Assembly (NCBI GenBank): GCA_964518765.1
Contig: CAZFJC010000005.1
Coordinates: 54,403-118,402 of the forward strand
Direction of reading: 5' to 3'
DNA from: an uncultured bacterium
GTDB lineage: Bacteria; Edwardsbacteria; AC1; EtOH8
Length of the DNA: 64,000 nucleotides
Part shown: in pieces, positions 1,998 through 53,574 of the stretch
How positions within the stretch are numbered: position 1 is the stretch's first letter
Layout: every line of letters begins with the position of its first letter
Translations under genes and position numbers: made by a program
The notes under the pieces: generated by a model
Databases searched by the model: none
What the model was told of the DNA's origin: nothing
What the model saw: only the letters and a program-made list of their open reading frames with translations

Positions 1998-2924
1998 TCA
2001 CAAGAGTAGCCGGGCGCGGCCGGCGTCCCTGGCCATGGCCCTCACCAGCTCCTGCTGGGAACTGAATCTCTTCTCCGGCCTCAGCCGCACTTTCAATCTC
2101 ACTTCGATATGGCTGGCCCGGGACGGTGGCGGGCCGGTAAGCGAATGGAACTCTATGGACAACATCCCCCGATTGGAAACGGTCGGCCTGGTGCCTATAT
2201 AGAGCAGGCCTTGATAATCCCTCCTGGCGATGATGGCAGAAGCCACATATACCCCGCTGGCCGGGATCAGCTGCTCTTTGTGTGTGAGCTCCAGGTTGAC
2301 GGTGGGAAAGCCTATTTTACCACCCAGGCCCTGCCCTCTGACCACCAATCCCTTCATGGCGTACGGCCTTCCCAGCATCCGGTTGGCCAGATCGATGTCG
2401 CCCCCGAGCAGCGCCATCTTGATCGCGGTGCTGCCGATCTTCAACCCGCCTTCCTTGAGTGGCCGGACCTCGGAGACCCGAAATCCGTATTTTCCGCCCA
2501 GCTTCCGAAGTAATGAAAGATTGCCCGAGCGTCCCCGCCCGAAACCGCAGTCGCTGCCGCAGACGACATGGGAGACCCGGAGCCTCTCCGCCAGGATCGT
2601 CCTCACGAAATCCTCCGGCCCCAGTTTCGCCACCTCCGGGGTGAACCTGATCACCACCAGGACATCCACCCCGGCCCGCTCCAGGATCAGCTCCTTATCC
2701 TTCAGGGAGATGAGGGCCCCCGGCCACCCGGGCTTGCCCAGCACCAGCTGGGGCGAAGGATCGAAGGTGATCACCGCACTGTCGTGGCCCCTCTTCTTGG
2801 CGATGGCTGTCAATGACCTGATGATGGCCATATGCCCCCGGTGCAGGCCGTCGAACACGCCCAGGGCGGCCACCGAGCCCGGCCTCTCCCGTCCGTATTT
2901 GCTGAGCCGCTTGACTATCAGCAT
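1998..2924 (-). CDS. ribF: bifunctional riboflavin kinase / FAD synthetase
   Basis: 308-aa product with the FAD-synthetase N-terminus (ALGVFDGLHRGH) and a riboflavin-kinase C-terminal domain. Confidence 0.9.
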   Translation of the reverse strand: MLIVKRLSKYGRERPGSVAALGVFDGLHRGHMAIIRSLTAIAKKRGHDSAVITFDPSPQLVLGKPGWPGALISLKDKELILERAGVDVLVVIRFTPEVAKLGPEDFVRTILAERLRVSHVVCGSDCGFGRGRSGNLSLLRKLGGKYGFRVSEVRPLKEGGLKIGSTAIKMALLGGDIDLANRMLGRPYAMKGLVVRGQGLGGKIGFPTVNLELTHKEQLIPASGVYVASAIIARRDYQGLLYIGTRPTVSNRGMLSIEFHSLTGPPPSRASHIEVRLKVRLRPEKRFSSQQELVRAMARDAGRARLLL

Positions 2925-2931
2925 CCGTCTT

Positions 2932-3801
2932 TCAGACCGCAGCCGCGAAGACGCATTCCGGACAGATCATGCCATTCCTCTCCCGTCCCACGGCCAGTAG
3001 TTTATCGTTGCACCTTAGGCGAAAGGCGTCTCCCTCGGCCAGCCCGCTGGACCTGGCGACCTGATTGCCGTGGCCTACTTTCACGGCCTCGGATTCGTCC
3101 AGTTCGACAGCCGGAAGGAACGACAGGGCCTTGTCCATCTCCATTCCTTTGGTTAGGACTGTTTTCTCATCCAGGGAGTCAAGCGGAACGGCCTGTTCTC
3201 GGGCGAAAGGCCCCACCGCCGTCCTAATCAACCGAGCCAGCGTCCCTCCGCTGCCCAAAGCCCGACCGATGTCTCGGGCCAGGGCGCGGATGTAGGTCCC
3301 CTTGGAGCACTTCACCCTGATGTCCAGCTCAGTTTCCTCCAATTTTAAGAGGTCTATGGCATGTATCCGCACCTTCCTGGGCGCGGGCTCGACCGGTTTT
3401 CCCTGACGGGCCAGCTTATAGAGCGGCACCCCGTCCTTCTTCAGCGCCGCGTATCGGGGCGGTACCTGGTCTATCTCCCCGACGAAGCCGAACAAAGTCT
3501 TTTCCACCGATCCTCTGTCAAGGGCAGGGACGGGCTTTTCCCCGATGACCGCGCCCTCCAGGTCGTCGGTCTCGGTCTCCACCCCCAGCCTGATGGTTGC
3601 CTGATATTCCTTGGAGAGACACTCCAGATAACGAGCCGCCCTGGTGGCCTGGCCTAGAAGCACCAACAGGACACCGGAGGCCGTTGGATCCAACGTGCCG
3701 GCGTGCCCAGCCCGCACGGCGCGGCAAAGCCGCCGGACCCTGGCCACAGCGGCGAAGGAGGTAGGCCCCGGCGGCTTGTCGATGTTGAGCACCAGGTCCA
3801 T
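2932..3801 (-). CDS. truB: tRNA pseudouridine(55) synthase
   Basis: MDLVLNIDKPPGPTSFAAVARVRRL...GHAGTLDPTASGVLLVLLGQATR, TruB catalytic motif plus C-terminal PUA-like region. Confidence 0.9.
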   Translation of the reverse strand: MDLVLNIDKPPGPTSFAAVARVRRLCRAVRAGHAGTLDPTASGVLLVLLGQATRAARYLECLSKEYQATIRLGVETETDDLEGAVIGEKPVPALDRGSVEKTLFGFVGEIDQVPPRYAALKKDGVPLYKLARQGKPVEPAPRKVRIHAIDLLKLEETELDIRVKCSKGTYIRALARDIGRALGSGGTLARLIRTAVGPFAREQAVPLDSLDEKTVLTKGMEMDKALSFLPAVELDESEAVKVGHGNQVARSSGLAEGDAFRLRCNDKLLAVGRERNGMICPECVFAAAV

Positions 3802-3819: not shown

Positions 3820-5691
3820 CTAACGACACAGGAAATCCTTGATCTGGTCGGCGATGCCTTCCTCGTCCAGCCGATACTTGGCCAGCAGTTCCGCCCTGGA
3901 GGCATGGGGAATGAAAGTATTGGGCAGGCCCAGTCTGAGTATGCGACAGGCGGCCCCGGCCTCCTGGGCCAGCTCATCTATGGCCGAGCCGAAGCCGCCG
4001 GCCAGCACGTTCTCCTCGACGGTCACCACCTTTCGATGTTTTTTGAAAATCGACAGGTAAAGCTCCACGTCCAGAGGACGGCAGAACCTGGCGTTGACCA
4101 CCTGCAGGAAGATGCCCTCTTCTCTGAGTCTGATTGCCGCCTGCCTGGCCAGGGTGGCCATGATGCCGATGCCGATCACTGCCCCATTGCGACCTTGCTC
4201 CAAAATCTCGGCCTTTCCTATCTCCAACCTGGCCGGCTCGGCCGGGACAGCGCCGAAGCCCGCCCCGCGGGGGTAGCGGATGGCCGATGGCTGGTCCAGC
4301 TGCAGGGCGGTGAATAGCATGGAGCGCAGCTCCTGCTCGTCGCGAGGGGACATGACCACCAGATTCGGCACCAATCGAAGGTAGGAAAGGTCGAAGGCCC
4401 CATGGTGGGTTGGCCCATCCTCTCCCACCACTCCGGCCCGATCCAAGGCCATCACCACCGGCAGCTTCTGCAGGGCGATGTCATGGATGATCTGGTCAAA
4501 GGCCCGCTGCATGAAGGTGGAGTAGATGGCCACCACCGGACGCATCCCGCCCCTGGCCAGGCCGGCGGCGAAGGTCAGGGCGTGCTGTTCGGCGATGCCT
4601 ACGTCGTAGAACCGCTCCGGGATCTTCTGGCGAAACAGGTCAAGCCCGGTGCCCTCGGGCATGGCCGCGGTCACGGCCACGATCCTCCGATCGTCCCGGG
4701 CCATCTCCACCAGCGCCTGCCCGAAGATCTGGGTGAAGGTGCAGACGCCTCCGCACTGCCGGGCGTCGCCGGTCTCCGGGTCGAAGGCCCCCACCCCGTG
4801 GAACTTCTCGGCATCGTGCTCCGCCGGCTGAAAGCCCTTCCCCTTGACCGTCAGCACATGAAGCAGGGTCGGCCCCGGCAGCTCGCGTATCCTCTGCAGC
4901 AGCTCGATCAAAGCCGGAAGATCATGGCCGTCGACCGGCCCCTCGTAATGGTAGCCCAGCTCCTCGAAGGTCAGCCCGGGTACGATCAGATTCTTGAATC
5001 CCTCCCGGATGCGGCGGAAGAGCAGACGGGTCGGTTGGCCCAGGTCGGTAGGGAGCTTGCCCAGGAGCTCCCAAACACCCTTCTCCAGGCCGGTGTAGGT
5101 CTGGGTGGTGGTGATCCTGGTCAGGTACTGCCCGAAGGCCCCCACCCTCTTGGAGATAGCCATGGAGTTGTCGTTCAGCACCACCAGCATGTTCTTCTTG
5201 AGCTGGCCGGCGTGGTTCAGGCCCTCGAAAGCCATGCCGCCGGTCAGCGAGCCGTCGCCGATGACCGCCACCACCTTGTGTCTTTCCCCTGAAAGGTCCC
5301 GGGCGCAAGCCATGCCCAGGGCGGCCGAGATGGAGGTGGAGGCATGGCCGGTGCCGAAAGCATCGTAGGGGCTCTCCTCGATCTTGGGAAAGCCGGAGAG
5401 CCCACCGGCTTGGCGGATGGTGTTGAAGCGGCGGCGGCGGCCGGTCAGCAGCTTGTGGGCGTAGGTCTGGTGGCCGACGTCCCAAATGATCTGGTCCCGG
5501 GGGGCGTCGAACACATAGTGCAGGGCGATGGTCAGCTCCACTGTTCCCAGGCTGGGCGCCAGGTGCCCCCCGTTGCGGGAGATGACGTCGATGATCTCGG
5601 AGCGGATCTCGGCCGCCAGCTGCGTCAGCTGCTGGACATCCAGCCGCTTGAGGTCATCCGGGTTTTCAATATTGTCCAGAAGGCTAGGCAT
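3820..5691 (-). CDS. dxs: 1-deoxy-D-xylulose-5-phosphate synthase
   Basis: 623 aa with thiamine-PP motif GDG...NDN and transketolase-like C-terminus. Conserved ispA-dxs context. Confidence 0.95.
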   Translation of the reverse strand: MPSLLDNIENPDDLKRLDVQQLTQLAAEIRSEIIDVISRNGGHLAPSLGTVELTIALHYVFDAPRDQIIWDVGHQTYAHKLLTGRRRRFNTIRQAGGLSGFPKIEESPYDAFGTGHASTSISAALGMACARDLSGERHKVVAVIGDGSLTGGMAFEGLNHAGQLKKNMLVVLNDNSMAISKRVGAFGQYLTRITTTQTYTGLEKGVWELLGKLPTDLGQPTRLLFRRIREGFKNLIVPGLTFEELGYHYEGPVDGHDLPALIELLQRIRELPGPTLLHVLTVKGKGFQPAEHDAEKFHGVGAFDPETGDARQCGGVCTFTQIFGQALVEMARDDRRIVAVTAAMPEGTGLDLFRQKIPERFYDVGIAEQHALTFAAGLARGGMRPVVAIYSTFMQRAFDQIIHDIALQKLPVVMALDRAGVVGEDGPTHHGAFDLSYLRLVPNLVVMSPRDEQELRSMLFTALQLDQPSAIRYPRGAGFGAVPAEPARLEIGKAEILEQGRNGAVIGIGIMATLARQAAIRLREEGIFLQVVNARFCRPLDVELYLSIFKKHRKVVTVEENVLAGGFGSAIDELAQEAGAACRILRLGLPNTFIPHASRAELLAKYRLDEEGIADQIKDFLCR

Positions 5692-6139
5692 AATGAAACA
5701 GCAACGCCCAGGCCAGTCCGATCAGGGCGCCGGCGAACACCTCGACGGGCGTGTGCCCCAAGAGCTCCTTGAGGGTCTCGCCTCCGGCCCTCTTCTTCAT
5801 AGCCCGGCTTTCTATTATCCGGTTGAGGATGATGGACTGCCGGCCCACCGCCCGCCGCACCCCGGCCGCGTCGTACATAACCACGAAGGCGATGTAGGCC
5901 GCCATTGTAAAGCCGATGCTTCCAAAGCCCTGTTGGAGACCGACCATGGCGGCCAGGGTGACCGAAGAGGCCGAATGGGAGCTGGGCATGCCACCGGCCT
6001 CCAGCACCCGGTGCCAGTTCAACCGCTTCTCCCAGATGATCGAGGCAAAGGCCTTCATGATCTGGGTCGACAGCCCGCTGGCCATCACCGCCCACAGCGT
6101 CCTGTTCCCCAGCAATTCATATAAGATGGCGGCATTCAT
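5684..6139 (-). CDS. divergent PAP2 / DUF212 (YuiD-like) membrane protein
   Basis: 151-aa hydrophobic protein with GMPSSHSA (PAP2-like) motif; overlaps the dxs start by 8 nt. Confidence 0.7.
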   Translation of the reverse strand: MNAAILYELLGNRTLWAVMASGLSTQIMKAFASIIWEKRLNWHRVLEAGGMPSSHSASSVTLAAMVGLQQGFGSIGFTMAAYIAFVVMYDAAGVRRAVGRQSIILNRIIESRAMKKRAGGETLKELLGHTPVEVFAGALIGLAWALLFHYA

Positions 6140-6170
6140 GATTTCCCCGGTCTTGCCCTAAGGCGTTCCT

Positions 6171-7322
6171 TTAGAATTCGCGGTTGATCATATAGTTGGC
6201 CCAGGAAAGCAGCAGCTTCTTGTAGTCGGAGAATGGTAGGGGCTCCAATGCCGCCAGGGCTTTGCGCACGTACTTCTGGGCCAGCTCGGCGGTGTAGGTC
6301 AGGCTGCCCGACTCCTCCAGTATCCTGGCGGCCCGTTTGACCTCGCCAGCGGTGGCCTTGGGGTTGCCCAGGGTGCGCAGCAACTGACGTCGGTCGGCGG
6401 CCCCGGCCTCGCCCAGGGCGTGGTGGACGATGACCGTCCTCTTCCCCTCGCGGATGTCCGAGCCCACCGGCTTTCCCAGCTTCCTCTCGTTGCCGATGAT
6501 GCCCAGGATGTCGTCCTGCAGCTGGAAGGCGATCCCGCAGCTGGAGGCGAAGGTGGACAGAGCCTCCACCGCCGGATGCCGAGCGTTTGGCTGGTCGATG
6601 CCGATCATGGCCCCGGCCCGGCCGGCGAACTGATAGAGGGCGCCGGTCTTCTTCCACAGCATGTCGATGATCTTGTCCTCGGTCAGCTGCTGGATGGGCA
6701 GCTTGGAGTAAAGTACGTCCAGGGCCTCGCCCTCTATCAGGGCGCACTGGACGTCCACCTCCAGGTCAAGTATCAGCTGCAGGGCCAGGATGGGGTTGAC
6801 GCCCTTCTCCCTCACCAGCTCGCAGAGCAGCGAGATGGTCCATCCCTGCTGCAGGTCGCCGGCCAGCACCGCCATCGACAGCCCGTAGTGGGCGGCCTCG
6901 GCCTCCTTAAGGCCTAGCTTCTTCATGGCCTGGCTCTTGATGTACTGGTGGACGGTAGGAATGCCCCGCCGCAGCTGGTCGCGGTCGATGATGTCGTCAT
7001 GGACCAGAGTCCAGGTGTGGTAGACCTCCACCGCCGCCGCCGCTGGAAGGGCCCGGTCCTCGCTGCCCCCGGCCGCCCCACAGCTGAAGAGGAGCACCGC
7101 CGGCCTCAGCGACTTGCCCCCGGCCCCCAGGTAGCTGTGGACCCCGCGGTAGATGTCATCCGGCTTGAACCGGTCCGGCCGGTCCTTGTCCTTGAGGTAC
7201 TGGTGCACCAGCATCTTTCGCTTGGCCACCTCCTCCAGCAGCAGGGCCAGCCCCTGGTCGGCCGTCCGGCTCGATTTTTGAACCGGCGTTTTGGCCTTGA
7301 CGGTCTTCCGCTTGGCGGTCAT
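6171..7322 (-). CDS. ispA: polyprenyl diphosphate synthase (FPP/GGPP synthase family) with Lys-rich N-terminal extension
   Basis: Has both DDIIDxxxxRRG and FQLQDDILG aspartate-rich motifs. ATGA overlap with the xseB stop. Conserved xseB-ispA-dxs order. Confidence 0.85.
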   Translation of the reverse strand: MTAKRKTVKAKTPVQKSSRTADQGLALLLEEVAKRKMLVHQYLKDKDRPDRFKPDDIYRGVHSYLGAGGKSLRPAVLLFSCGAAGGSEDRALPAAAAVEVYHTWTLVHDDIIDRDQLRRGIPTVHQYIKSQAMKKLGLKEAEAAHYGLSMAVLAGDLQQGWTISLLCELVREKGVNPILALQLILDLEVDVQCALIEGEALDVLYSKLPIQQLTEDKIIDMLWKKTGALYQFAGRAGAMIGIDQPNARHPAVEALSTFASSCGIAFQLQDDILGIIGNERKLGKPVGSDIREGKRTVIVHHALGEAGAADRRQLLRTLGNPKATAGEVKRAARILEESGSLTYTAELAQKYVRKALAALEPLPFSDYKKLLLSWANYMINREF

Positions 7323-8783: not shown

Positions 8784-9695
8784 TTAATCCCCTCCTTGCC
8801 AAGGAGGGGAAATAGAGGAGGTGGCCGCCTTGACGCAGTTGCGCAGCAGCATGGCCCGGGTCAGCGGCCCCACCCCGCCCGGCACCGGAGTTATATAAGA
8901 GGCGATTTTCTCGGCCGACTCGAAGTCAACGTCTCCCACCAGCCGGAAGCCGCTCTTGGCCGAGGGGTCCTCGATCCGATTGACCCCCACATCCACCACC
9001 ACGCAATTGTTGTTCAGCATGTCCCCGGTGATGATCCCCGGCGAGCCGGCGGCGGCGATGACGATGTCCGCCTGCTTGGTGTAATAGGCCAGCCCCCGGG
9101 TACGGGTGTGACAGACGGTGACCGTGGCGTCCCCCCGGTCCGACTTCTGGGTCAGCATGTTGGCCAGGGGCCGTCCTACGATGTTGGAGCGGCCCACGAT
9201 TACTATATATTTTCCCGGTATCTCGATCCCGGTCCTGACCAGTATCTCCACCACCCCGGCCGGGGTGCAGGGCAAAAAGCGGGGCCGGCCCTGGGTCAAA
9301 AGGCCCACGTTCTCAGGATGGAAGCAGTCAACGTCCTTGAGCGGCGATATCTTCCGGAAGGCTGCCTGCTCGTCCAGGCCCTTGGGCAGTGGCGACTGGA
9401 CAAGTATCCCGTGGATGGTTGTATCTTTGTTAAGCTTGTCGACCTGGGCAAGCAGTTCGTCCTGGGTGGTGGTCTCCGGCATCTCGATAACCGTGGACTT
9501 GATGCCGGTCTCCTGGCAGTCCTTGTGCTTGTTGCGCACGTAGACCTGTGAGGCCGGGTCCGAGCCCACGATGATGACGGCCAAGTGGGGCTCTTTCCCC
9601 TTTGCCCTTAATCCTTGGACCTCTTGGGCAACCTCCCCCTTGATCTCGATCGCTATTTTCTTGCCGTCAATTACTATTCCCATATCGGCTTTCAA
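8784..9695 (-). CDS. folD: bifunctional 5,10-methylene-THF dehydrogenase / cyclohydrolase
   Basis: Typical FolD sequence (HLAVIIVGSDPASQVYVRNK...GILVQSPLP...). Alternative start 12 nt downstream at MGIVIDG. Confidence 0.9.
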   Translation of the reverse strand: MKADMGIVIDGKKIAIEIKGEVAQEVQGLRAKGKEPHLAVIIVGSDPASQVYVRNKHKDCQETGIKSTVIEMPETTTQDELLAQVDKLNKDTTIHGILVQSPLPKGLDEQAAFRKISPLKDVDCFHPENVGLLTQGRPRFLPCTPAGVVEILVRTGIEIPGKYIVIVGRSNIVGRPLANMLTQKSDRGDATVTVCHTRTRGLAYYTKQADIVIAAAGSPGIITGDMLNNNCVVVDVGVNRIEDPSAKSGFRLVGDVDFESAEKIASYITPVPGGVGPLTRAMLLRNCVKAATSSISPPWQGGD

Positions 9696-10464
9696 GGGCC
9701 AAGCTCTCTATTTTTCGAGAAAAGCTGTTTCGATCATCGATCTCCACCACCACCGCATTCAGCCTGACCTCCCCCTCGGCCGTCTCGAACTTCTGCGGCA
9801 TCCCGGTCAAGAAGCGCCTGAGCACCGCCTCCTTCTGCATGCCGATCACCCCGTCGAAGCCTCCGGTCATGCCGACGTCGGTGATGTAGGCCGTGCCATT
9901 GGGGAGTATCCTCTCGTCGGCCGTCTGGACGTGGGTGTGGGTTCCGATGACCGCCGTGGCCCGTCCGTCGAGATGCCAGCCCAAGGCGACTTTTTCCGAC
10001 GTAGCCTCGGCGTGGATATCGACAACGATGATATCAGTTTCCTTCCTGATTTTTTCGACCATCTCGGTGGCCTTGCGGAAAGGGCAGTCCAACGCCTGCA
10101 TGAACACCCGGCCCTGCAAACAGAAGACCCCGACCCTGGCTCCATTTCTGGCTTTAAAGATGCCGGACCTGGCGCCCACCGCTCCCTCCGGGTAATTGGC
10201 CGGGCACAGTATCCTGGGCTCCTTGGCTATATACCACACGGAGTCCTTCTTGTCCCACAGGTGGTTTCCCCCCGTCAGGACGTCTATCCCCAGGCTGAGC
10301 AGTTCACGTCCCACGCTCTCGGTGATGCCGAACCCGGCCGCCGCGTTCTCTCCATTGGCGATGACGAAGTCGATCCCGTGCCTCTCGGCCAGCCCCGGCA
10401 GCAGCTGTTTGACCGCCTGTCTCCCCGGCCGCCCGATAATATCGCCGATGAATAATACTTTCAA
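9667..10464 (-). CDS. ymdB: TIGR00282-family metallophosphoesterase (YmdB-like 2',3'-cNMP phosphodiesterase)
   Basis: MKVLFIGDIIGRPGR...GENAAAGFGIT...GGNHLWD. Sits next to rny as in the B. subtilis rny-ymdB operon. Confidence 0.85.
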   Translation of the reverse strand: MKVLFIGDIIGRPGRQAVKQLLPGLAERHGIDFVIANGENAAAGFGITESVGRELLSLGIDVLTGGNHLWDKKDSVWYIAKEPRILCPANYPEGAVGARSGIFKARNGARVGVFCLQGRVFMQALDCPFRKATEMVEKIRKETDIIVVDIHAEATSEKVALGWHLDGRATAVIGTHTHVQTADERILPNGTAYITDVGMTGGFDGVIGMQKEAVLRRFLTGMPQKFETAEGEVRLNAVVVEIDDRNSFSRKIESLALESRYGNSN

Positions 10465-10508: not shown

Positions 10509-12071
10509 TTACTTGGCGTAACCGATCCCCCGCGTCTCCCGGATGACCGTCACCTTGATCTGCCCGGGGTACTGCAGGGAGCTTTCTATCTTCTGGGCGA
10601 TCTCGTTGGCCATATCCGTGGTCCGGGCGTCGTTGACCTCCTCCGGGGTGACGATGATGCGCACCTCGCGCCCGGCCTGGATGGCGTAGGCCTTGCTAAC
10701 CCCCTTGAAGGAGTAGGCCACCTCCTCCAGCTTCTCCAGCCGCTTGATATAGGCCTCCAGAGACTCGCGACGGGCGCCGGGCCTGGCCCCGGAGATGGCG
10801 TCGGCCGCGGCCACCAGCACCGAGATGGGCGAGATAGCCTCGATGTCCTCGTGATGGGCCCCGATGGCGTTGACCACCACCGCGTTCTCCCCGTATTTCT
10901 TGGCCAGGTCCATGCCGATCTGGCTGTGGGTGCCCTCGACGCTATGGTCCACTGCCTTGCCCAGGTCGTGCAGTAGGCCGGCCCGCTTGGCCAGGGCCTG
11001 GTCCAGCTCCAGCTCGCCGGCCATGGTGGCCGCCAGGAAGGCCACCTCCTTGGAGTGCTGTAGAACATTCTGCCCGTAGCTGGTACGGTACTTCAGCCTG
11101 CCCAGCAGCTGGATGACCTCGGGGTGCAGTCCGGGCACCCCCACCTCCAGGGCCACCGACTCTCCCGCCTCTTTGATGGAGCGGTCGACCTCGCCTTTGG
11201 CCTTTTCGATGACCTCCTCTATTCGGGCCGGTTGGATACGTCCGTCGGCTATCAGGCGCTCCATGGCCATCCGGGCCACCTCCCGCCGCACCGGGTCGAA
11301 GGCCGAGATGACGATGGCTTCGGGGGTGTCGTCTATCAGCACCTCCACCCCGGTGGCCGCCTCAAAGGCCCTGATGTTCCGGCCCTCGCGGCCGATGATC
11401 CTCCCCTTCATCTCGTCCGAGGCCAGCGGCACCACGCTGACGGTGGTCTCGGCGGTGTGCTCGCCGGCGTAGCGCTGGATGGCCTGGACGATTATCTGCT
11501 TGGCCTCGCGCTCGGCGTTCTCCCTGGCCTCGTCCCTGATGTTCTTGATGAGCTGGGCCGCCTCGTGCCTGGCCTGGACCTCCAAGTTCTGCATCAGGAT
11601 CCTCTTGGCCTCCTCCTGGGTGAGCCCGGCGATCTGCTCCAGCTTGGTGTTCTGCTCGTCTATCAGGGTGGTCAGCCGCTCGTCCTTGGCCCGCAGCACC
11701 CGCTCCTTGGCAGTGGCCTCGCGCTCCCGGTTCTCCACCTCCCGCTCCTTGCGGTTGACGATGTCCACCTTGTGGTCGATCTGCTTCTCCCTCTCGATCA
11801 GCCGCCCCTCCAGCTCCTTGAGCTCCGCCTTCTTGGCCTGGGTCTCCTTCTCGAAATTCGACTTTAGCCGGTACCACTCCTCTTTGGCCTGTACCTGGGC
11901 TGCCTTCTTGTAGGTGGCCGACTCTCGTTGGGCCTCGGCCACGATCTTCTCGGCCAGCTTCTCGGCCCCGGCCAGCCTGGCCTCGCCCATCTTCTGGTGC
12001 AGCAGATAGCCCAGAAAAAAACCCAGGGCCGCACCTAACACCGATATGATGATCCAGATCACCACTCCCAT
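10509..12071 (-). CDS. rny: ribonuclease Y
   Basis: 520 aa with an N-terminal TM helix, coiled-coil, KH domain and HD domain (LLHDLGKA). Confidence 0.95.
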
Positions 12072-12097
12072 ATTGCCTCCCTTCCGATGCTTATATG

Positions 12098-12286
12098 TAA
12101 AATTCCCCGCCTGTGCCGGGCAGGCGAACGTTTTGAACCCGTTAAAAAGTGGTGCCGCCTCGAACGCTTTAGGCTTCCCCGCGCCGGCGGGGCGTGCACA
12201 CCACGTCCGAAGGTTATGGCCCTTGATAACAGGTGTTGGCTCAAAAACTGTCCGCGAGCTTCGGGCACTGCAGGGAATGCTTGCTC
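12098..12286 (-). ncRNA. ssrS: candidate 6S RNA (SsrS), ~190 nt, between zapA and rny
   Basis: Promoter TTGAAA-N17-TATATT at complement(12293..12321) lies directly after the zapA stop. Transcript 5' segment (GCAUUCCCUGCAGUGCC) pairs with the 3' segment (GGCAC..GGGGAAU) to give a closing helix, followed by UUUU. Internal GAAGCCUAAAGCG and GGGUUCAA resemble the E. coli 6S 3' strand. Position downstream of zapA matches E. coli and many other bacteria. Confidence 0.45.
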
Positions 12287-12328
12287 AAGACAAATATACC
12301 ACCAGGCCGGACCGATTTCAAGGGGGAT

Positions 12329-12598
12329 CTAGTCGTCGACCAGCTTCAGCCTCTCCGCCAGGGCGGCCAGGGCCTTCTCCCGGTCCTCCCGCTCCCGGAA
12401 CAGCTCGTCGGCGATGTTGATGGCGGTCAGGATGGCCAGCTTGGAGACCGAGCCGGTGGACGACGCCTGGGCCAGCTGCTGCATCTTACCGTCCACGTAG
12501 GCGGCCACCCGGCGGATGTACTCGGCGTTGGCCTCGCCCTTGATGCGATACTCCGCACCGAAAATCTCGACCTTGGTTCCCGTTTTGGCCTGCGTCAT
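12329..12598 (-). CDS. zapA: cell division protein ZapA
   Basis: 89 aa starting at the internal Met (MTQAKTGTKVEIFGAEYRIKGEAN...), ZapA family. Confidence 0.8.
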   Translation of the reverse strand: MTQAKTGTKVEIFGAEYRIKGEANAEYIRRVAAYVDGKMQQLAQASSTGSVSKLAILTAINIADELFREREDREKALAALAERLKLVDD

Positions 12599-12644
12599 TT
12601 TACTATCGCTTCTTGAACAGTGCTTCCCCGCAGCGCCCGGCCGG

Positions 12645-12920
12645 CTACTCCTGGAATTTCTCCAGTTTGGCCACAATGTCCGCCAGGCGGCGTTTGGCCT
12701 CTTCCTGGGCCTGGCTCAGGCGCTGGTTCTCCTCGGCCAGGGACTTGTCCTGCTGGGAAGCCTTGGTCAGCTCCGCCAGCTGGTCCTGCAGCCGCTTGTT
12801 CTCCCGCCTGAGCTGCTGTATCTCTTTCTGTTGCTGCTCCTTCTCGGATCTCAGGGTGCCGATGACGGCCAAAGCCTTGTTGACCTTGTCCTCCAGCACC
12901 GCCAGTGGGTCGGTTGTCAT
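12645..12920 (-). CDS. zapB: ZapB-like coiled-coil cell division protein
   Basis: 91-aa all-helical coiled coil with Q/E/K/L-rich heptads, adjacent to zapA. Confidence 0.55.
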   Translation of the reverse strand: MTTDPLAVLEDKVNKALAVIGTLRSEKEQQQKEIQQLRRENKRLQDQLAELTKASQQDKSLAEENQRLSQAQEEAKRRLADIVAKLEKFQE

Positions 12921-12950: not shown

Positions 12951-15008
12951 TTATCTGATCTCGGCGCCCAGCTTCTGCCTCAGTGCCTCGACTATTCTTT
13001 GGTGGGCCCGGGAGACATCCTGGTCGGAAAGCGCCCGGTCGTCCAGCCGGTAGCGCAGGGTCAGGGCCAGGCTTTTCCTGCCCTGGCCCGCCTGCTCTCC
13101 CCGGTAGAGATCGAAAAGCTCGGCGTCCTTCAGCTCCGGGCGGCCAGCCTCCAGCACCGCTTTGTGAATCGAACCAAAGCTGGTTGCTTCGTCCACCGCT
13201 AGGGCCAGATCGCGCCTTATGGCCGGAAATTTGGGGATGCTCCGGTACCGTTTGTCATCCGAAGCCAAGGCCACCAGCACCGGTCCCAGCTCCATCTCCA
13301 GACAGCAGGCCCGACCCTCGATCCCTAGAGCCCGGGCTATTTTGGGGTCAAGCTCGCCCAGGAAGCCAATCTTTTTGCCGTCCAGGATCAGAGCCGCCGC
13401 CCGGCCGGCATAAAGCCAGTCAGGATCTCCCTCTCCGGCTGGCGTCATCAGGTACTTCATGCCCAGAGAATCGAGGAGCAATTCGGCCGCTCCCTTTAGG
13501 TCGAAGAACTCGAAATCCCTTGGCTTGCCGTCCCAAAAAACTGGAGCGGCGGTGCCGATGGCCGCCCCGGCCAGCATCAGGCATTCCTCCGGGGCCTGGC
13601 CGCTATTGCCCAGATAAACCAGGCCGATCTCGAACAGCCTGACGTCTGAAGTCCCGTTGTTCCGGTTGAAGGCCAAAGCCTCCAACAGGCCGGGCAACAA
13701 GCTGGGCCTGAGCACCGACAGCTCCGAGGACATGGGGTTAGCCAGCTTGACGAGTTCCTTGCCGGAAGATAGCTTGAGGGCCAAATCCGGGTCAGACATC
13801 GGCAGGCCGTAGTGCTCCGAGAAACCCAGCCCGACCATGATCCGGGCGATGGCGCGGAGGTTGAGGTCCTTGGACCTGGACCTGGCCGGAACGGACCAGG
13901 CTGGCGCATGTTCGTCAGGCAGCTGGTCGTATCCATGGACTCGGGCTATCTCCTCAATGAGGTCCACCTCGCGCTCCAGGTCGCGACGGAAGCTGGGGAC
14001 GGCAACCGTAATCTTTCCGCCCGTACGTTCCGCCTTCAGCTCAAGAGCCTTCAGTATCTCCAGCATCCTTTCGACAGAGACGGAGATGCCCAAAAGCTTG
14101 TCGACCCTCTCCGGCCTGAGCTCCACCTGCCAGGATCCGGGGAATTGTTTCGCCGAGACATCTATCCGCCCTTTGGCCACCTGGCCCCCGGCCACCTCGG
14201 CGATCATCCTGGCCGCGCGGTCGGACGCCCTCTCCAGAGCCAAGGGGTCGGCCCCGCGCTCGAATCGGTAGGAGGCGTCGGACTTTAGGCCCAGAGCTCG
14301 GCTGCCCCGGCGGATGAGTTTGGGATCGAAATAGGCGCTTTCCAGGAGCACGTTCTTCGTCGAACCCGAGATCTCGGTATCAGCGCCGCCCATGATGCCG
14401 GCCAGGGCCACCGGGCGTTTGGAGTCGGCTATCACCAGGTGATCGCCTGTCAGCTTACGTTCCACACCGTCCAGGGTGGTCATGGCCTCCCCGGCCTTGG
14501 CCCTTCGGACCACGATGGTCTTGTCGGCCAGCCGGTCAAGGTCGAAGGCGTGAAGGGGATGCCCCATTTCGTATAAAACAAGATTGGTGACGTCGGCCAC
14601 GTTGTTGATGGGGCGCAGACCCACGCTCTCTATCTTCTCCTTTAGCCACTGGGGCGACTCGGCCACCCTGACCCCGGTCACCACCCTGGCCACATAACGG
14701 GGACACCCTTCCTTATCCTCTACGACAACCTTGGCCAAGGTGCCGACATCCGTCCCCGTTTCCTTAACTGTGCAGTCCGGCTGCTCGATCTCCCCGCCGC
14801 ACAAAGCCCTGATCTCCCGGGCGATGCCCAGCATGGACAGACAGTCGGGCCGGTTGGGCGTCACCTCCAACTCCAGCTGCCAGTCCTGGTCTCCGCGCTT
14901 TTCCACGGCCTCCACCTCCACCCCGGCGTAGGTCAGCCGGTCGGCCAGCTGGTGGACGTCCAGGTCGAAGGGTATCAGCTCACGGAGCCACTTGTAGGAG
15001 ATTTTCAT
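12951..15008 (-). CDS. pheT: phenylalanine--tRNA ligase beta subunit, short form lacking the N-terminal OB-fold tRNA-binding domain
   Basis: 685 aa. B3/4, B5, catalytic-like and FDX-ACB domains are recognisable. The sequence jumps from GVEVEAVE straight to the VTPNRPDCLS region. Confidence 0.95.
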   Translation of the reverse strand: MKISYKWLRELIPFDLDVHQLADRLTYAGVEVEAVEKRGDQDWQLELEVTPNRPDCLSMLGIAREIRALCGGEIEQPDCTVKETGTDVGTLAKVVVEDKEGCPRYVARVVTGVRVAESPQWLKEKIESVGLRPINNVADVTNLVLYEMGHPLHAFDLDRLADKTIVVRRAKAGEAMTTLDGVERKLTGDHLVIADSKRPVALAGIMGGADTEISGSTKNVLLESAYFDPKLIRRGSRALGLKSDASYRFERGADPLALERASDRAARMIAEVAGGQVAKGRIDVSAKQFPGSWQVELRPERVDKLLGISVSVERMLEILKALELKAERTGGKITVAVPSFRRDLEREVDLIEEIARVHGYDQLPDEHAPAWSVPARSRSKDLNLRAIARIMVGLGFSEHYGLPMSDPDLALKLSSGKELVKLANPMSSELSVLRPSLLPGLLEALAFNRNNGTSDVRLFEIGLVYLGNSGQAPEECLMLAGAAIGTAAPVFWDGKPRDFEFFDLKGAAELLLDSLGMKYLMTPAGEGDPDWLYAGRAAALILDGKKIGFLGELDPKIARALGIEGRACCLEMELGPVLVALASDDKRYRSIPKFPAIRRDLALAVDEATSFGSIHKAVLEAGRPELKDAELFDLYRGEQAGQGRKSLALTLRYRLDDRALSDQDVSRAHQRIVEALRQKLGAEIR

Positions 15009-15058: not shown

Positions 15059-16096
15059 TCAGAACTGCTCCAAAAATCTCAAGTCCCCTTGGTAAAACAG
15101 CCTGATGTCGTCTATCCCGTAGCGCAGCATGGCCACCCGCTCCAGACCCATGCCCCAGGCGTAGCCGGTGTAGGCCTCGGGGTCGTAGCCCACATTGCGG
15201 AAGACGTTGGGGTCCACCATCCCGGCCCCGGAGATCTCCAGCCAGCCCGACTGCTTGCACACCCGGCAGCCGGCGCCTTTACAGAAGACGCAGGAGAAGT
15301 CGTACTCGACGCTGGGCTCGGTGAAGGGGAAGAAGTGGGGGCGGAACCTGATTTTGACATCCGGGCCCAGCAGCTGTCGGGCGAAGTAGGTCAAAGTGGC
15401 CTTGAGGTCGGCCAGCGAGACGTTGCGGTCGACGTACAGACCTTCGCACTGGTGGAACACCGGCATGTGGGAGGCGTCGATGGCGTCCCGGCGGTAGCAG
15501 CGGCCCGGAGCGATGATCCGCACCGGCGGCCTCTGGGACTCCATTACTCTGATCTGCACCGGAGAGGTGTGGGTGCGCATCAGAAGGTCGGGGGGCTTTT
15601 CGAGATAAAAGGTATCCTGCAGGTTCCACGAGGGGTGGTCGCGCGGCGTGTTCAGGGCCTCGAAGTTGTGCCACTCGGTCTCGCAGTCCGGCCCCTCGGC
15701 CACCGAGAATCCCAGACCGTGGAAGATCTCCACCACCTCGTCCATTAGCTGAGAAAGGGGATGTCGATGCCCAGCCCAGACCCTCCGCCCCGGCAGAGTG
15801 ACGTCTAGGGACTCGGCTTTCCGCTTGGCGGCGTCGGCCTGAGCCAGAAGCTCAGCCTGGCGGGCCTCCAACAGGGAAGACACCTCTTGCTTGGTCCGAT
15901 TGGCCGCGGCCCCGTAGGCCGCCCGGCGCTCGGATGGCAGGGAGGAGATCGCCTTCAACATCTCGGTCAGCTGGCCCTTGCGGCCCAGGTAGCGTACTCT
16001 CAGCTCCTCCAGTGCCTCAGGGGAACCGCAGGCGCCTATGGCCGACTTGGCTTCCGCGGCTACGCTAGCCAGCTTGTCTTCCATAAAACTTGTCAA
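15059..16096 (-). CDS. pheS: phenylalanine--tRNA ligase alpha subunit
   Basis: Class II aaRS motifs (FRPHFFPFTEPS, GAGMVDPNV, GWGMGLERVAMLRYG). Confidence 0.95.
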   Translation of the reverse strand: MTSFMEDKLASVAAEAKSAIGACGSPEALEELRVRYLGRKGQLTEMLKAISSLPSERRAAYGAAANRTKQEVSSLLEARQAELLAQADAAKRKAESLDVTLPGRRVWAGHRHPLSQLMDEVVEIFHGLGFSVAEGPDCETEWHNFEALNTPRDHPSWNLQDTFYLEKPPDLLMRTHTSPVQIRVMESQRPPVRIIAPGRCYRRDAIDASHMPVFHQCEGLYVDRNVSLADLKATLTYFARQLLGPDVKIRFRPHFFPFTEPSVEYDFSCVFCKGAGCRVCKQSGWLEISGAGMVDPNVFRNVGYDPEAYTGYAWGMGLERVAMLRYGIDDIRLFYQGDLRFLEQF

Positions 16097-53285: not shown

Positions 53286-53307
53286 TAATATTCTTGGGGT
53301 TTTTCTC

Positions 53308-53360
53308 TGGGGGATCGTCCAACGGCAGGACACGTGGCTCTGGACCACGGTATCGGGGTT
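53308..53360 (+). pseudogene. truncated or disrupted duplicate of tRNA-Gln
   Basis: 53 nt identical to 53500..53552 (acceptor 5' strand through T-stem 5' strand), followed by ~76 nt of unrelated GC-hairpin sequence and a degenerate T-arm/acceptor remnant (CGGGGAATCCCTGTCCatgCCCCA). Confidence 0.55.
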
Positions 53361-53499
53361 CTCAGCCTGACGCCCGGCAAGGGGTCGGGCGGCGGCTGAC
53401 CCGCCGCTTATCATGCCTTATATCATTGCTCAGGCGGGGAATCCCTGTCCATGCCCCATCTCGTTTTTGTTAATCGTCGGAAAACTTGTAAAAAATAAC

Positions 53500-53574
<75 letters not shown>

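Follow-up and report, generated by a model that had tools for sequence, protein, structure and literature searches.

The zapA-rny gap and the RNA it encodes

What is encoded in the 257-nt gap (12072-12328) between zapA and rny? The gap lies in a 64-kb stretch of DNA, the window, in which all genes of this locus are read from the minus strand. Upstream are pheS (15059-16096, assigned by eye from the ORF translation), pheT (12951-15008), zapB (12645-12920) and zapA (12329-12598; Pfam ZapA, E 2.2e-20), whose TAG stop codon at 12331..12329 borders the gap. Downstream follow rny, encoding RNase Y (10509-12071; Pfam RNase_Y_N, KH and HD), a gene for a ymdB-like phosphoesterase (9667-10464) and folD (8784-9695), a folate gene two genes downstream of rny. 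Apart from pheS, these genes were assigned by Pfam. The window's RNase Y shows 96% identity to a protein found in uncultured metagenome bins and 84-85% identity to proteins that carry the name Candidatus Edwardsbacteria at NCBI. We conclude, with a probability of about 95%, that the host is an uncultured Candidatus Edwardsbacteria-like bacterium and that the zapA-rny gap holds its ssrS (6S RNA) gene.

A sequence-only reading had proposed a candidate 6S RNA between zapA and rny, to be checked by an Infernal search with the Rfam model RF00013 (6S/SsrS). The whole window was scanned against Rfam 15 at gathering thresholds, and this revealed two matches, one tRNA and RF00013. The RF00013 match at 12279..12100 on the minus strand reached 86.5 bits against a gathering score of 46.4, and with an E value of 1.1e-15 it is not a product of chance. 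It covers model positions 1-187 of 187 without truncation. Hence, the search was positive and the proposed 6S RNA was confirmed; on the basis of this full-length match we place ssrS at 12100..12279 on the minus strand. Only one 6S copy was seen in the window. R1, a covariance model built from distant relatives and the window (see below), scored the RNA at 154 bits over 12286..12094. Judging from the sequence, the primary transcript likely extends from about 12286 to about 12097 and would be ~185-190 nt long.

The 6S gene follows zapA immediately and is read from the same strand. The same holds for ssrS of E. coli K-12 (b2911; RF00013), a member of the same Rfam family, which is annotated there in the order zapA, ssrS, fau/ygfA. 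The zapA-ssrS arrangement has been described (PMC9788540), in line with its earlier designation as a conserved arrangement. In length the two RNAs are similar, with 183 nt in E. coli and 180-190 nt here. Blocks common to both are UGAGCC, GGUG(U/A)GCA, GAAGCCU(U)AAA and GGGUUCAA. The stretches GAAGCCUAAA and GGGUUCAA had been noticed as resembling the 3' strand of E. coli 6S RNA; indeed, these blocks are present, and GAAGCCUAAAGCG and GGGUUCAA of the window align with GAAGCCUUAAAA and GGGUUCAA of the annotated K-12 ssrS. With blastn, no similarity to the RNA was seen in any of the complete E. coli genomes, so that homology rests on the covariance model together with this direct alignment. Taken as a kind, the gene is already known: an ordinary, canonical 6S gene in its canonical place after zapA.

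The RNA is preceded by a putative promoter; its sequence had been described directly after the zapA stop and was found there. The -35 hexamer TTGAAA (12321..12316) and the -10 hexamer TATATT (12298..12293) are separated by 17 nt, and the site as a whole (12321..12293, minus strand) begins 7 nt past the stop codon. It matches the consensus at 10 of 12 positions and is TG-extended, with the TG preceding the -10 hexamer. On both strands of 11900-12700 it is the only sigma-70-like site, where 0.3 are expected from shuffled sequences. From the usual spacing to the -10 hexamer, transcription would start at about 12286/12285.

Predicted fold and product RNA

The predicted minimum-free-energy fold of the RNA has -80.1 kcal/mol (z = -3.2 against shuffles). 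In it, 12278..12270 pair with 12110..12102 to form a 9-bp helix, which a 1-nt interruption separates from a 5-bp helix, in agreement with the interrupted 9-bp and 5-bp closing helix of the sequence-only reading. The canonical layout emerged when the sequence was threaded onto the consensus structure of Rfam. Here, the 5' arm of the closing stem (12262..12278) pairs with the 3' arm (12118..12102) in 9+4+2 bp; predicted fold, Rfam threading and covariation all point to this stem, with covariation in helices 1 and 2. An internal loop separates the closing stem from a 4+6-bp helix by the bubble, whose 5' strand GUUUUUGAGCC (12238..12248) pairs with 12139..12130. The central bubble follows, with a 15-nt 5' strand AACACCUGUUAUCAA (12223..12237), unpaired in the Rfam consensus, and an 11-nt 3' strand CACUUUUUAAC (12140..12150). 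The internal (apical) stem and the apical loop occupy 12151..12222, and the stem base covaries (helix 3, both-side changes in 5/5 pairs). The threaded structure presents the rod of closing stem, central bubble and internal stem with apical loop.

The minimum-free-energy fold keeps the rod and partly closes the bubble, with ACCUGUUA paired to UAACGGGU; it exceeds the Rfam-threaded structure in stability by 27 kcal/mol. In free 6S RNAs the minimum-energy fold commonly closes the bubble. Since the bubble is seen only in the threaded structure, we regard the open bubble as based on homology and not on energy. RNAalifold also drew a small hairpin in the 3' bubble strand. In the window only 3/4 of its pairs form, around a 3-nt loop, and we do not claim this hairpin here.

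To place the putative product RNA, we aligned the window with E. coli, where we take U44 to be the position at which the product RNA starts. By this alignment the C at 12235 would template the first nucleotide, and most of the product would be templated by the strand at 12238..12248. The 5' bubble strand and the predicted product differ from those of E. coli, in that the window product would start with G and the E. coli product starts with A. The predicted product 5'-GUUGGCUCAAAAAC resembles 5'-GUUCGGUCAAAACU, presumably the product RNA of B. subtilis 6S-1 RNA (bsrA). The latter shares family and architecture with the window RNA. Unlike in the window, the B. subtilis 6S genes adjoin neither zapA nor rny, and B. 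subtilis has two 6S paralogues versus the one copy seen here.

The E. coli and B. subtilis 6S RNAs suggest, by homology, the following mode of action. The sigma-70-type promoter right after zapA would drive an RNA of ~185-190 nt, which would fold into a rod consisting of the long, interrupted closing stem, the mostly open central bubble and the internal stem-loop. This rod would mimic an open promoter, with a -35-like region located in its internal arm and a -10-like one in its 3' bubble strand, and would occupy the active-site cleft of the housekeeping sigma holoenzyme. In stationary phase or when nutrients are limiting, 6S RNA would accumulate and damp transcription. Once NTPs return, the polymerase would copy the 5' bubble strand into the short product RNA, and the hybrid of product and 6S RNA would unwind the adjacent helix, refold the RNA and release the polymerase. 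Open-promoter mimicry, binding of the primary-sigma holoenzyme and release by product RNA have been described for 6S RNAs (PMC8876501, PMC10578484). By analogy, polymerase binding, product-RNA synthesis and growth-phase behavior would be expected of the 6S RNA analysed here.

Conservation, covariation and gene order

Eight close loci were fetched, with RNase Y proteins 67-96% identical to that of the window; those with a name are Candidatus Edwardsbacteria. All eight have zapA upstream of rny, seven show the order pheT-zapB/zapA-gap-rny, and an RF00013 match (70.6-103 bits) lies in every one of the eight zapA-rny gaps. In the intergenic alignment the RNA core is nearly invariant, and both flanks diverge in sequence and length. 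The putative template at the bubble edge, UUUUUGAGCCAAC, is invariant in seven Edwardsbacteria-like sequences. The putative promoter is likewise retained: relatives keep the -35 hexamer as TTGAAA, TTGCAA or TTGATT, followed by N17 and the -10 hexamer. GTATATT is conserved in the window, L081, L083, L084 and L086, the -10 region of L088 reads GTATAGT, and in L087 a separate site, TTGATT-N17-TATATT, precedes the 6S gene.

Open reading frames overlap the 6S region on the plus strand (12087..12332, 81 aa) and on the minus strand (12059..12268, 69 aa), as would be expected by chance at about 60% G+C. Could the region be a short protein-coding ORF, and the Rfam match accidental? Over the equivalent region of L083 a gene caller has indeed set an ORF of 88 aa without a Pfam match. 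Close relatives differ by single-nucleotide indels inside the conserved RNA core, which argues against a coding sequence, and the helices carry compensatory base changes. Together with the E value of the RF00013 match, these data rule out a chance match or a coding region, and we give this explanation practically no credence. The public L083 call (2238-2504) overlaps both the 6S RNA, in its 3' part, and the spacer before rny, and is probably a spurious ORF over a non-coding RNA. Gene callers can thus annotate spurious ORFs across 6S RNA.

To look beyond close relatives, 80 distant loci were recovered via RNase Y, one genome per species, the best being 58% identical. Among the first 20 of these, nine have an RF00013 match upstream of rny on the same strand. 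R1 was built from these nine sequences and the window; as a positive control, it recovers the experimentally established E. coli ssrS at 37.5 bits. With R1, a 6S RNA upstream of rny on the same strand was found in about 18 of the 80 distant loci, which belong to Desulfobacterota-type bacteria, Nitrospirota, WOR-3, Ratteibacteria and unclassified bins. Counting all eight Edwardsbacteria-like loci as well, the same-strand adjacency of ssrS and rny recurs across several phyla. We found no description of this adjacency in the literature searched, a set outside which the main 6S surveys (Barrick 2005; Wehner 2014) lie. The recurrence of a tight ssrS-rny coupling across phyla is modestly new.

The covariation test covered only the closing stem, the internal stem at its base and the small 3' hairpin. 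In a 24-sequence alignment, 88.4% of cells are paired compared with 72.1% after shuffling, and none of 500 shuffles reached the observed value; controls with slid partners gave 39-53%. Changes on both sides were observed in 24 of 29 pairs, and in 15 of 29 when a plain MAFFT alignment, not fitted to any model, was used.

Several rny loci have a zapA-rny gap in which no 6S RNA was detected. In L001, the closest species representative (rny 58%), the 315-nt gap (2686-3000) gave no 6S RNA either by Rfam (E up to 1) or by R1. The same holds for L005, L006, L009, L017, L018, L020, L021 and L037, which like L001 show zapA, a gap of 250-450 nt and rny, and in which neither Rfam nor R1 detected 6S RNA. 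Ignavibacteria, Bacteroidota and Gemmatimonadota are among these loci. Consequently, the zapA-6S-rny arrangement is not universal, or the 6S RNAs of these loci are too divergent to detect. Either 6S RNA is encoded elsewhere in such genomes, or a divergent 6S-like RNA (Ignavibacteria, Bacteroidota, Gemmatimonadota, Fibrobacterota) escapes the models.

The sequence-only reading had offered a long structured rny leader as its alternative. The RNA would then be only the structured 5' leader, a cis-regulatory element, of the rny mRNA. Its position is compatible with this, as it abuts the rny ribosome binding site and no terminator was detected. A full-length RF00013 match stands against it, and so does gene order in the relatives. 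The distance from 6S RNA to rny is 28 nt in the window and 10-30 nt in L012, L013, L016 and L027, and it increases to more than 1.5 kb in L014 and L040, where the RNA lies far upstream of rny. Other genes come between the RNA and rny in L010 (5-formyltetrahydrofolate cyclo-ligase, 2269-2856), L007 (RarA, 948-2399, and the cyclo-ligase, 2396-3004) and L089 (RarA/MgsA, 1042-2337). In each of these the RNA still resides by zapA. Furthermore, the same RNA family follows zapA in E. coli, which has no rny there. Because genes intervene between the RNA and rny, the RNA is not merely an rny leader; the alternative is contradicted by these data and, as a complete explanation, very improbable. In part the 6S and leader readings may both hold, since read-through from the 6S promoter could also transcribe rny.

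The cyclo-ligase gene (ygfA/fau) is also found just upstream of rny in L023, L025 and L028, and the ancestral order was likely zapA-ssrS-ygfA-rny-ymdB(-folD). No homologue of ygfA/fau was detectable in the whole 64-kb window, and ygfA is lost from this site in the lineage of the window. While the gene downstream of ssrS is ygfA/fau in E. coli, it is rny here.

The RarA/MgsA-type AAA ATPase gene lies directly downstream of the 6S RNA in L007 and L089. The 6S RNAs of Lactobacillales are flanked by rarA as well (PMC8414754), whereas the window 6S gene has no adjacent rarA. The linkage between 6S RNA and rarA may be much older than Lactobacillales. Gene content also varies after ymdB. At the position of the window's folD, L084 carries a BglII-like endonuclease and an MT-A70 methylase (5074-6368), and L087 an N6/N4 methylase and a HinfI-like endonuclease (4918-6563). 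The junction is conserved, and the position after ymdB forms a small variable island in it.

For the 6S RNA as such, the result is of little consequence except for correct annotation. With it, a 6S RNA is recorded for an Edwardsbacteria-like candidate phylum that has no cultured members, and the zapA-ssrS linkage extends to this phylum.

The 3' end of ssrS and the expression of rny

The RNA ends in GGGGAAUUUU, with a U run (12102..12099) at the 3' end of the closing stem. The rny ribosome binding site GGGAGG follows at 12081..12076 and the ATG at 12071, so the UUUU end just before the ribosome binding site that had been reported from the sequence is present. Only 28 nt, including this ribosome binding site, lie between the end of the 6S match and the rny ATG. 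The U tail was too short to be taken for an intrinsic terminator in our scan, and a simple consensus scan found no terminator-like site after the 6S gene, neither in 11900-12700 of the window nor in L081. An independent rny promoter after the 6S gene was likewise found neither in 11900-12700 nor in L081. The weak -10-like sequence TATAAG (12095..12090) has no acceptable -35 hexamer and was rejected as an rny promoter.

Relatives with 84-85% rny identity have a spacer of 100-230 nt and a U run of five or more. In L083 and L084, two of these relatives, the scan rates a homologous local hairpin with its 5-U tail as terminator-like. The 6S-rny spacers of L083, L084 and L087 yielded no plus-strand promoter. 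The longer spacers and U tails, together with the terminator-like hairpins, lead us to assume that termination after 6S RNA is likely the ancestral state. In the window, the 3' strand of the closing stem (12108-12126, minus strand) can also pair with itself, CGCCUG and CAGGCG enclosing a 7-nt loop, followed by GGGAAUUUU. This local hairpin may be an alternative fold that terminates during transcription and that was weakened in the lineage of the window. Terminator and spacer have apparently been lost in this lineage, a hint that a regulator of transcription and the main decay nuclease may be expressed together.

Do ssrS and rny then form one transcription unit? In this case the 6S promoter, or read-through from pheST-zapBA, would drive rny, and 6S RNA would be cut from the 5' part of the transcript. 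With no terminator or second promoter detected between the two genes, read-through with processing is plausible. The 28-nt distance with the ribosome binding site inside it, the U tail of just 4 nt and the 6S promoter as the single sigma-70-like site detected in 11900-12700 all favor such a unit. The same tight spacing is kept in the 94-96% relatives L081 and L086, gaps of 10-30 nt recur in the distant loci named above, and even the longer spacers of L083, L084 and L087 are without a detected plus-strand promoter. On the other hand, our promoter and terminator scans are simple consensus matches that can miss real sites, the TATAAG sequence is present, and the 84-85% relatives have the long spacers, U tails and terminator-like hairpins described above. 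Weighing these points, we rate a common transcription unit at a little below even odds.

E. coli offers a precedent. Its ssrS has a sigma-70-type promoter, like the one predicted for the window, and a downstream gene close enough for co-transcription to be plausible. In this organism ssrS and ygfA are co-transcribed, and 6S RNA is processed from ssrS-ygfA transcripts. Transferred to the window, 6S RNA would be fused to rny in this lineage, with both made as one transcript from which 6S RNA is released by processing, possibly by RNase Y itself. This more specific proposal is tentative, and we consider it rather unlikely. RNase Y is a major endonuclease in B. subtilis, where a specific role of it in 6S turnover could not be shown (PMC10578484). 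If the proposal is true, one transcript would give rise to both the main mRNA-decay endonuclease and a global brake on RNA polymerase, and the ssrS-rny link would couple RNA synthesis and RNA decay.

A further observation concerns tRNA genes elsewhere in the window. At 53307-53573 on the plus strand, ARAGORN predicts a pair of tRNA-Gln(CUG) genes separated by 122 nt. Of these, the second (53500-53573) is intact and scores 56.8 bits with the Rfam tRNA model, the first just 17.3 bits. The first copy shares an exact 54-nt 5' part (53308-53361) with the second, up to GGGGUUC of the T-loop. This is followed by an unrelated, hairpin-rich insert of about 78 nt (53362-53439) that is unique in the window. 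After the insert, T-loop and T-stem resume (GAATCCCTGTCC, 53440-53451), followed by a degenerate acceptor strand. The first copy looks like a duplicate interrupted in the T-loop, that is, a pseudogene, a small insertion or an integration scar.
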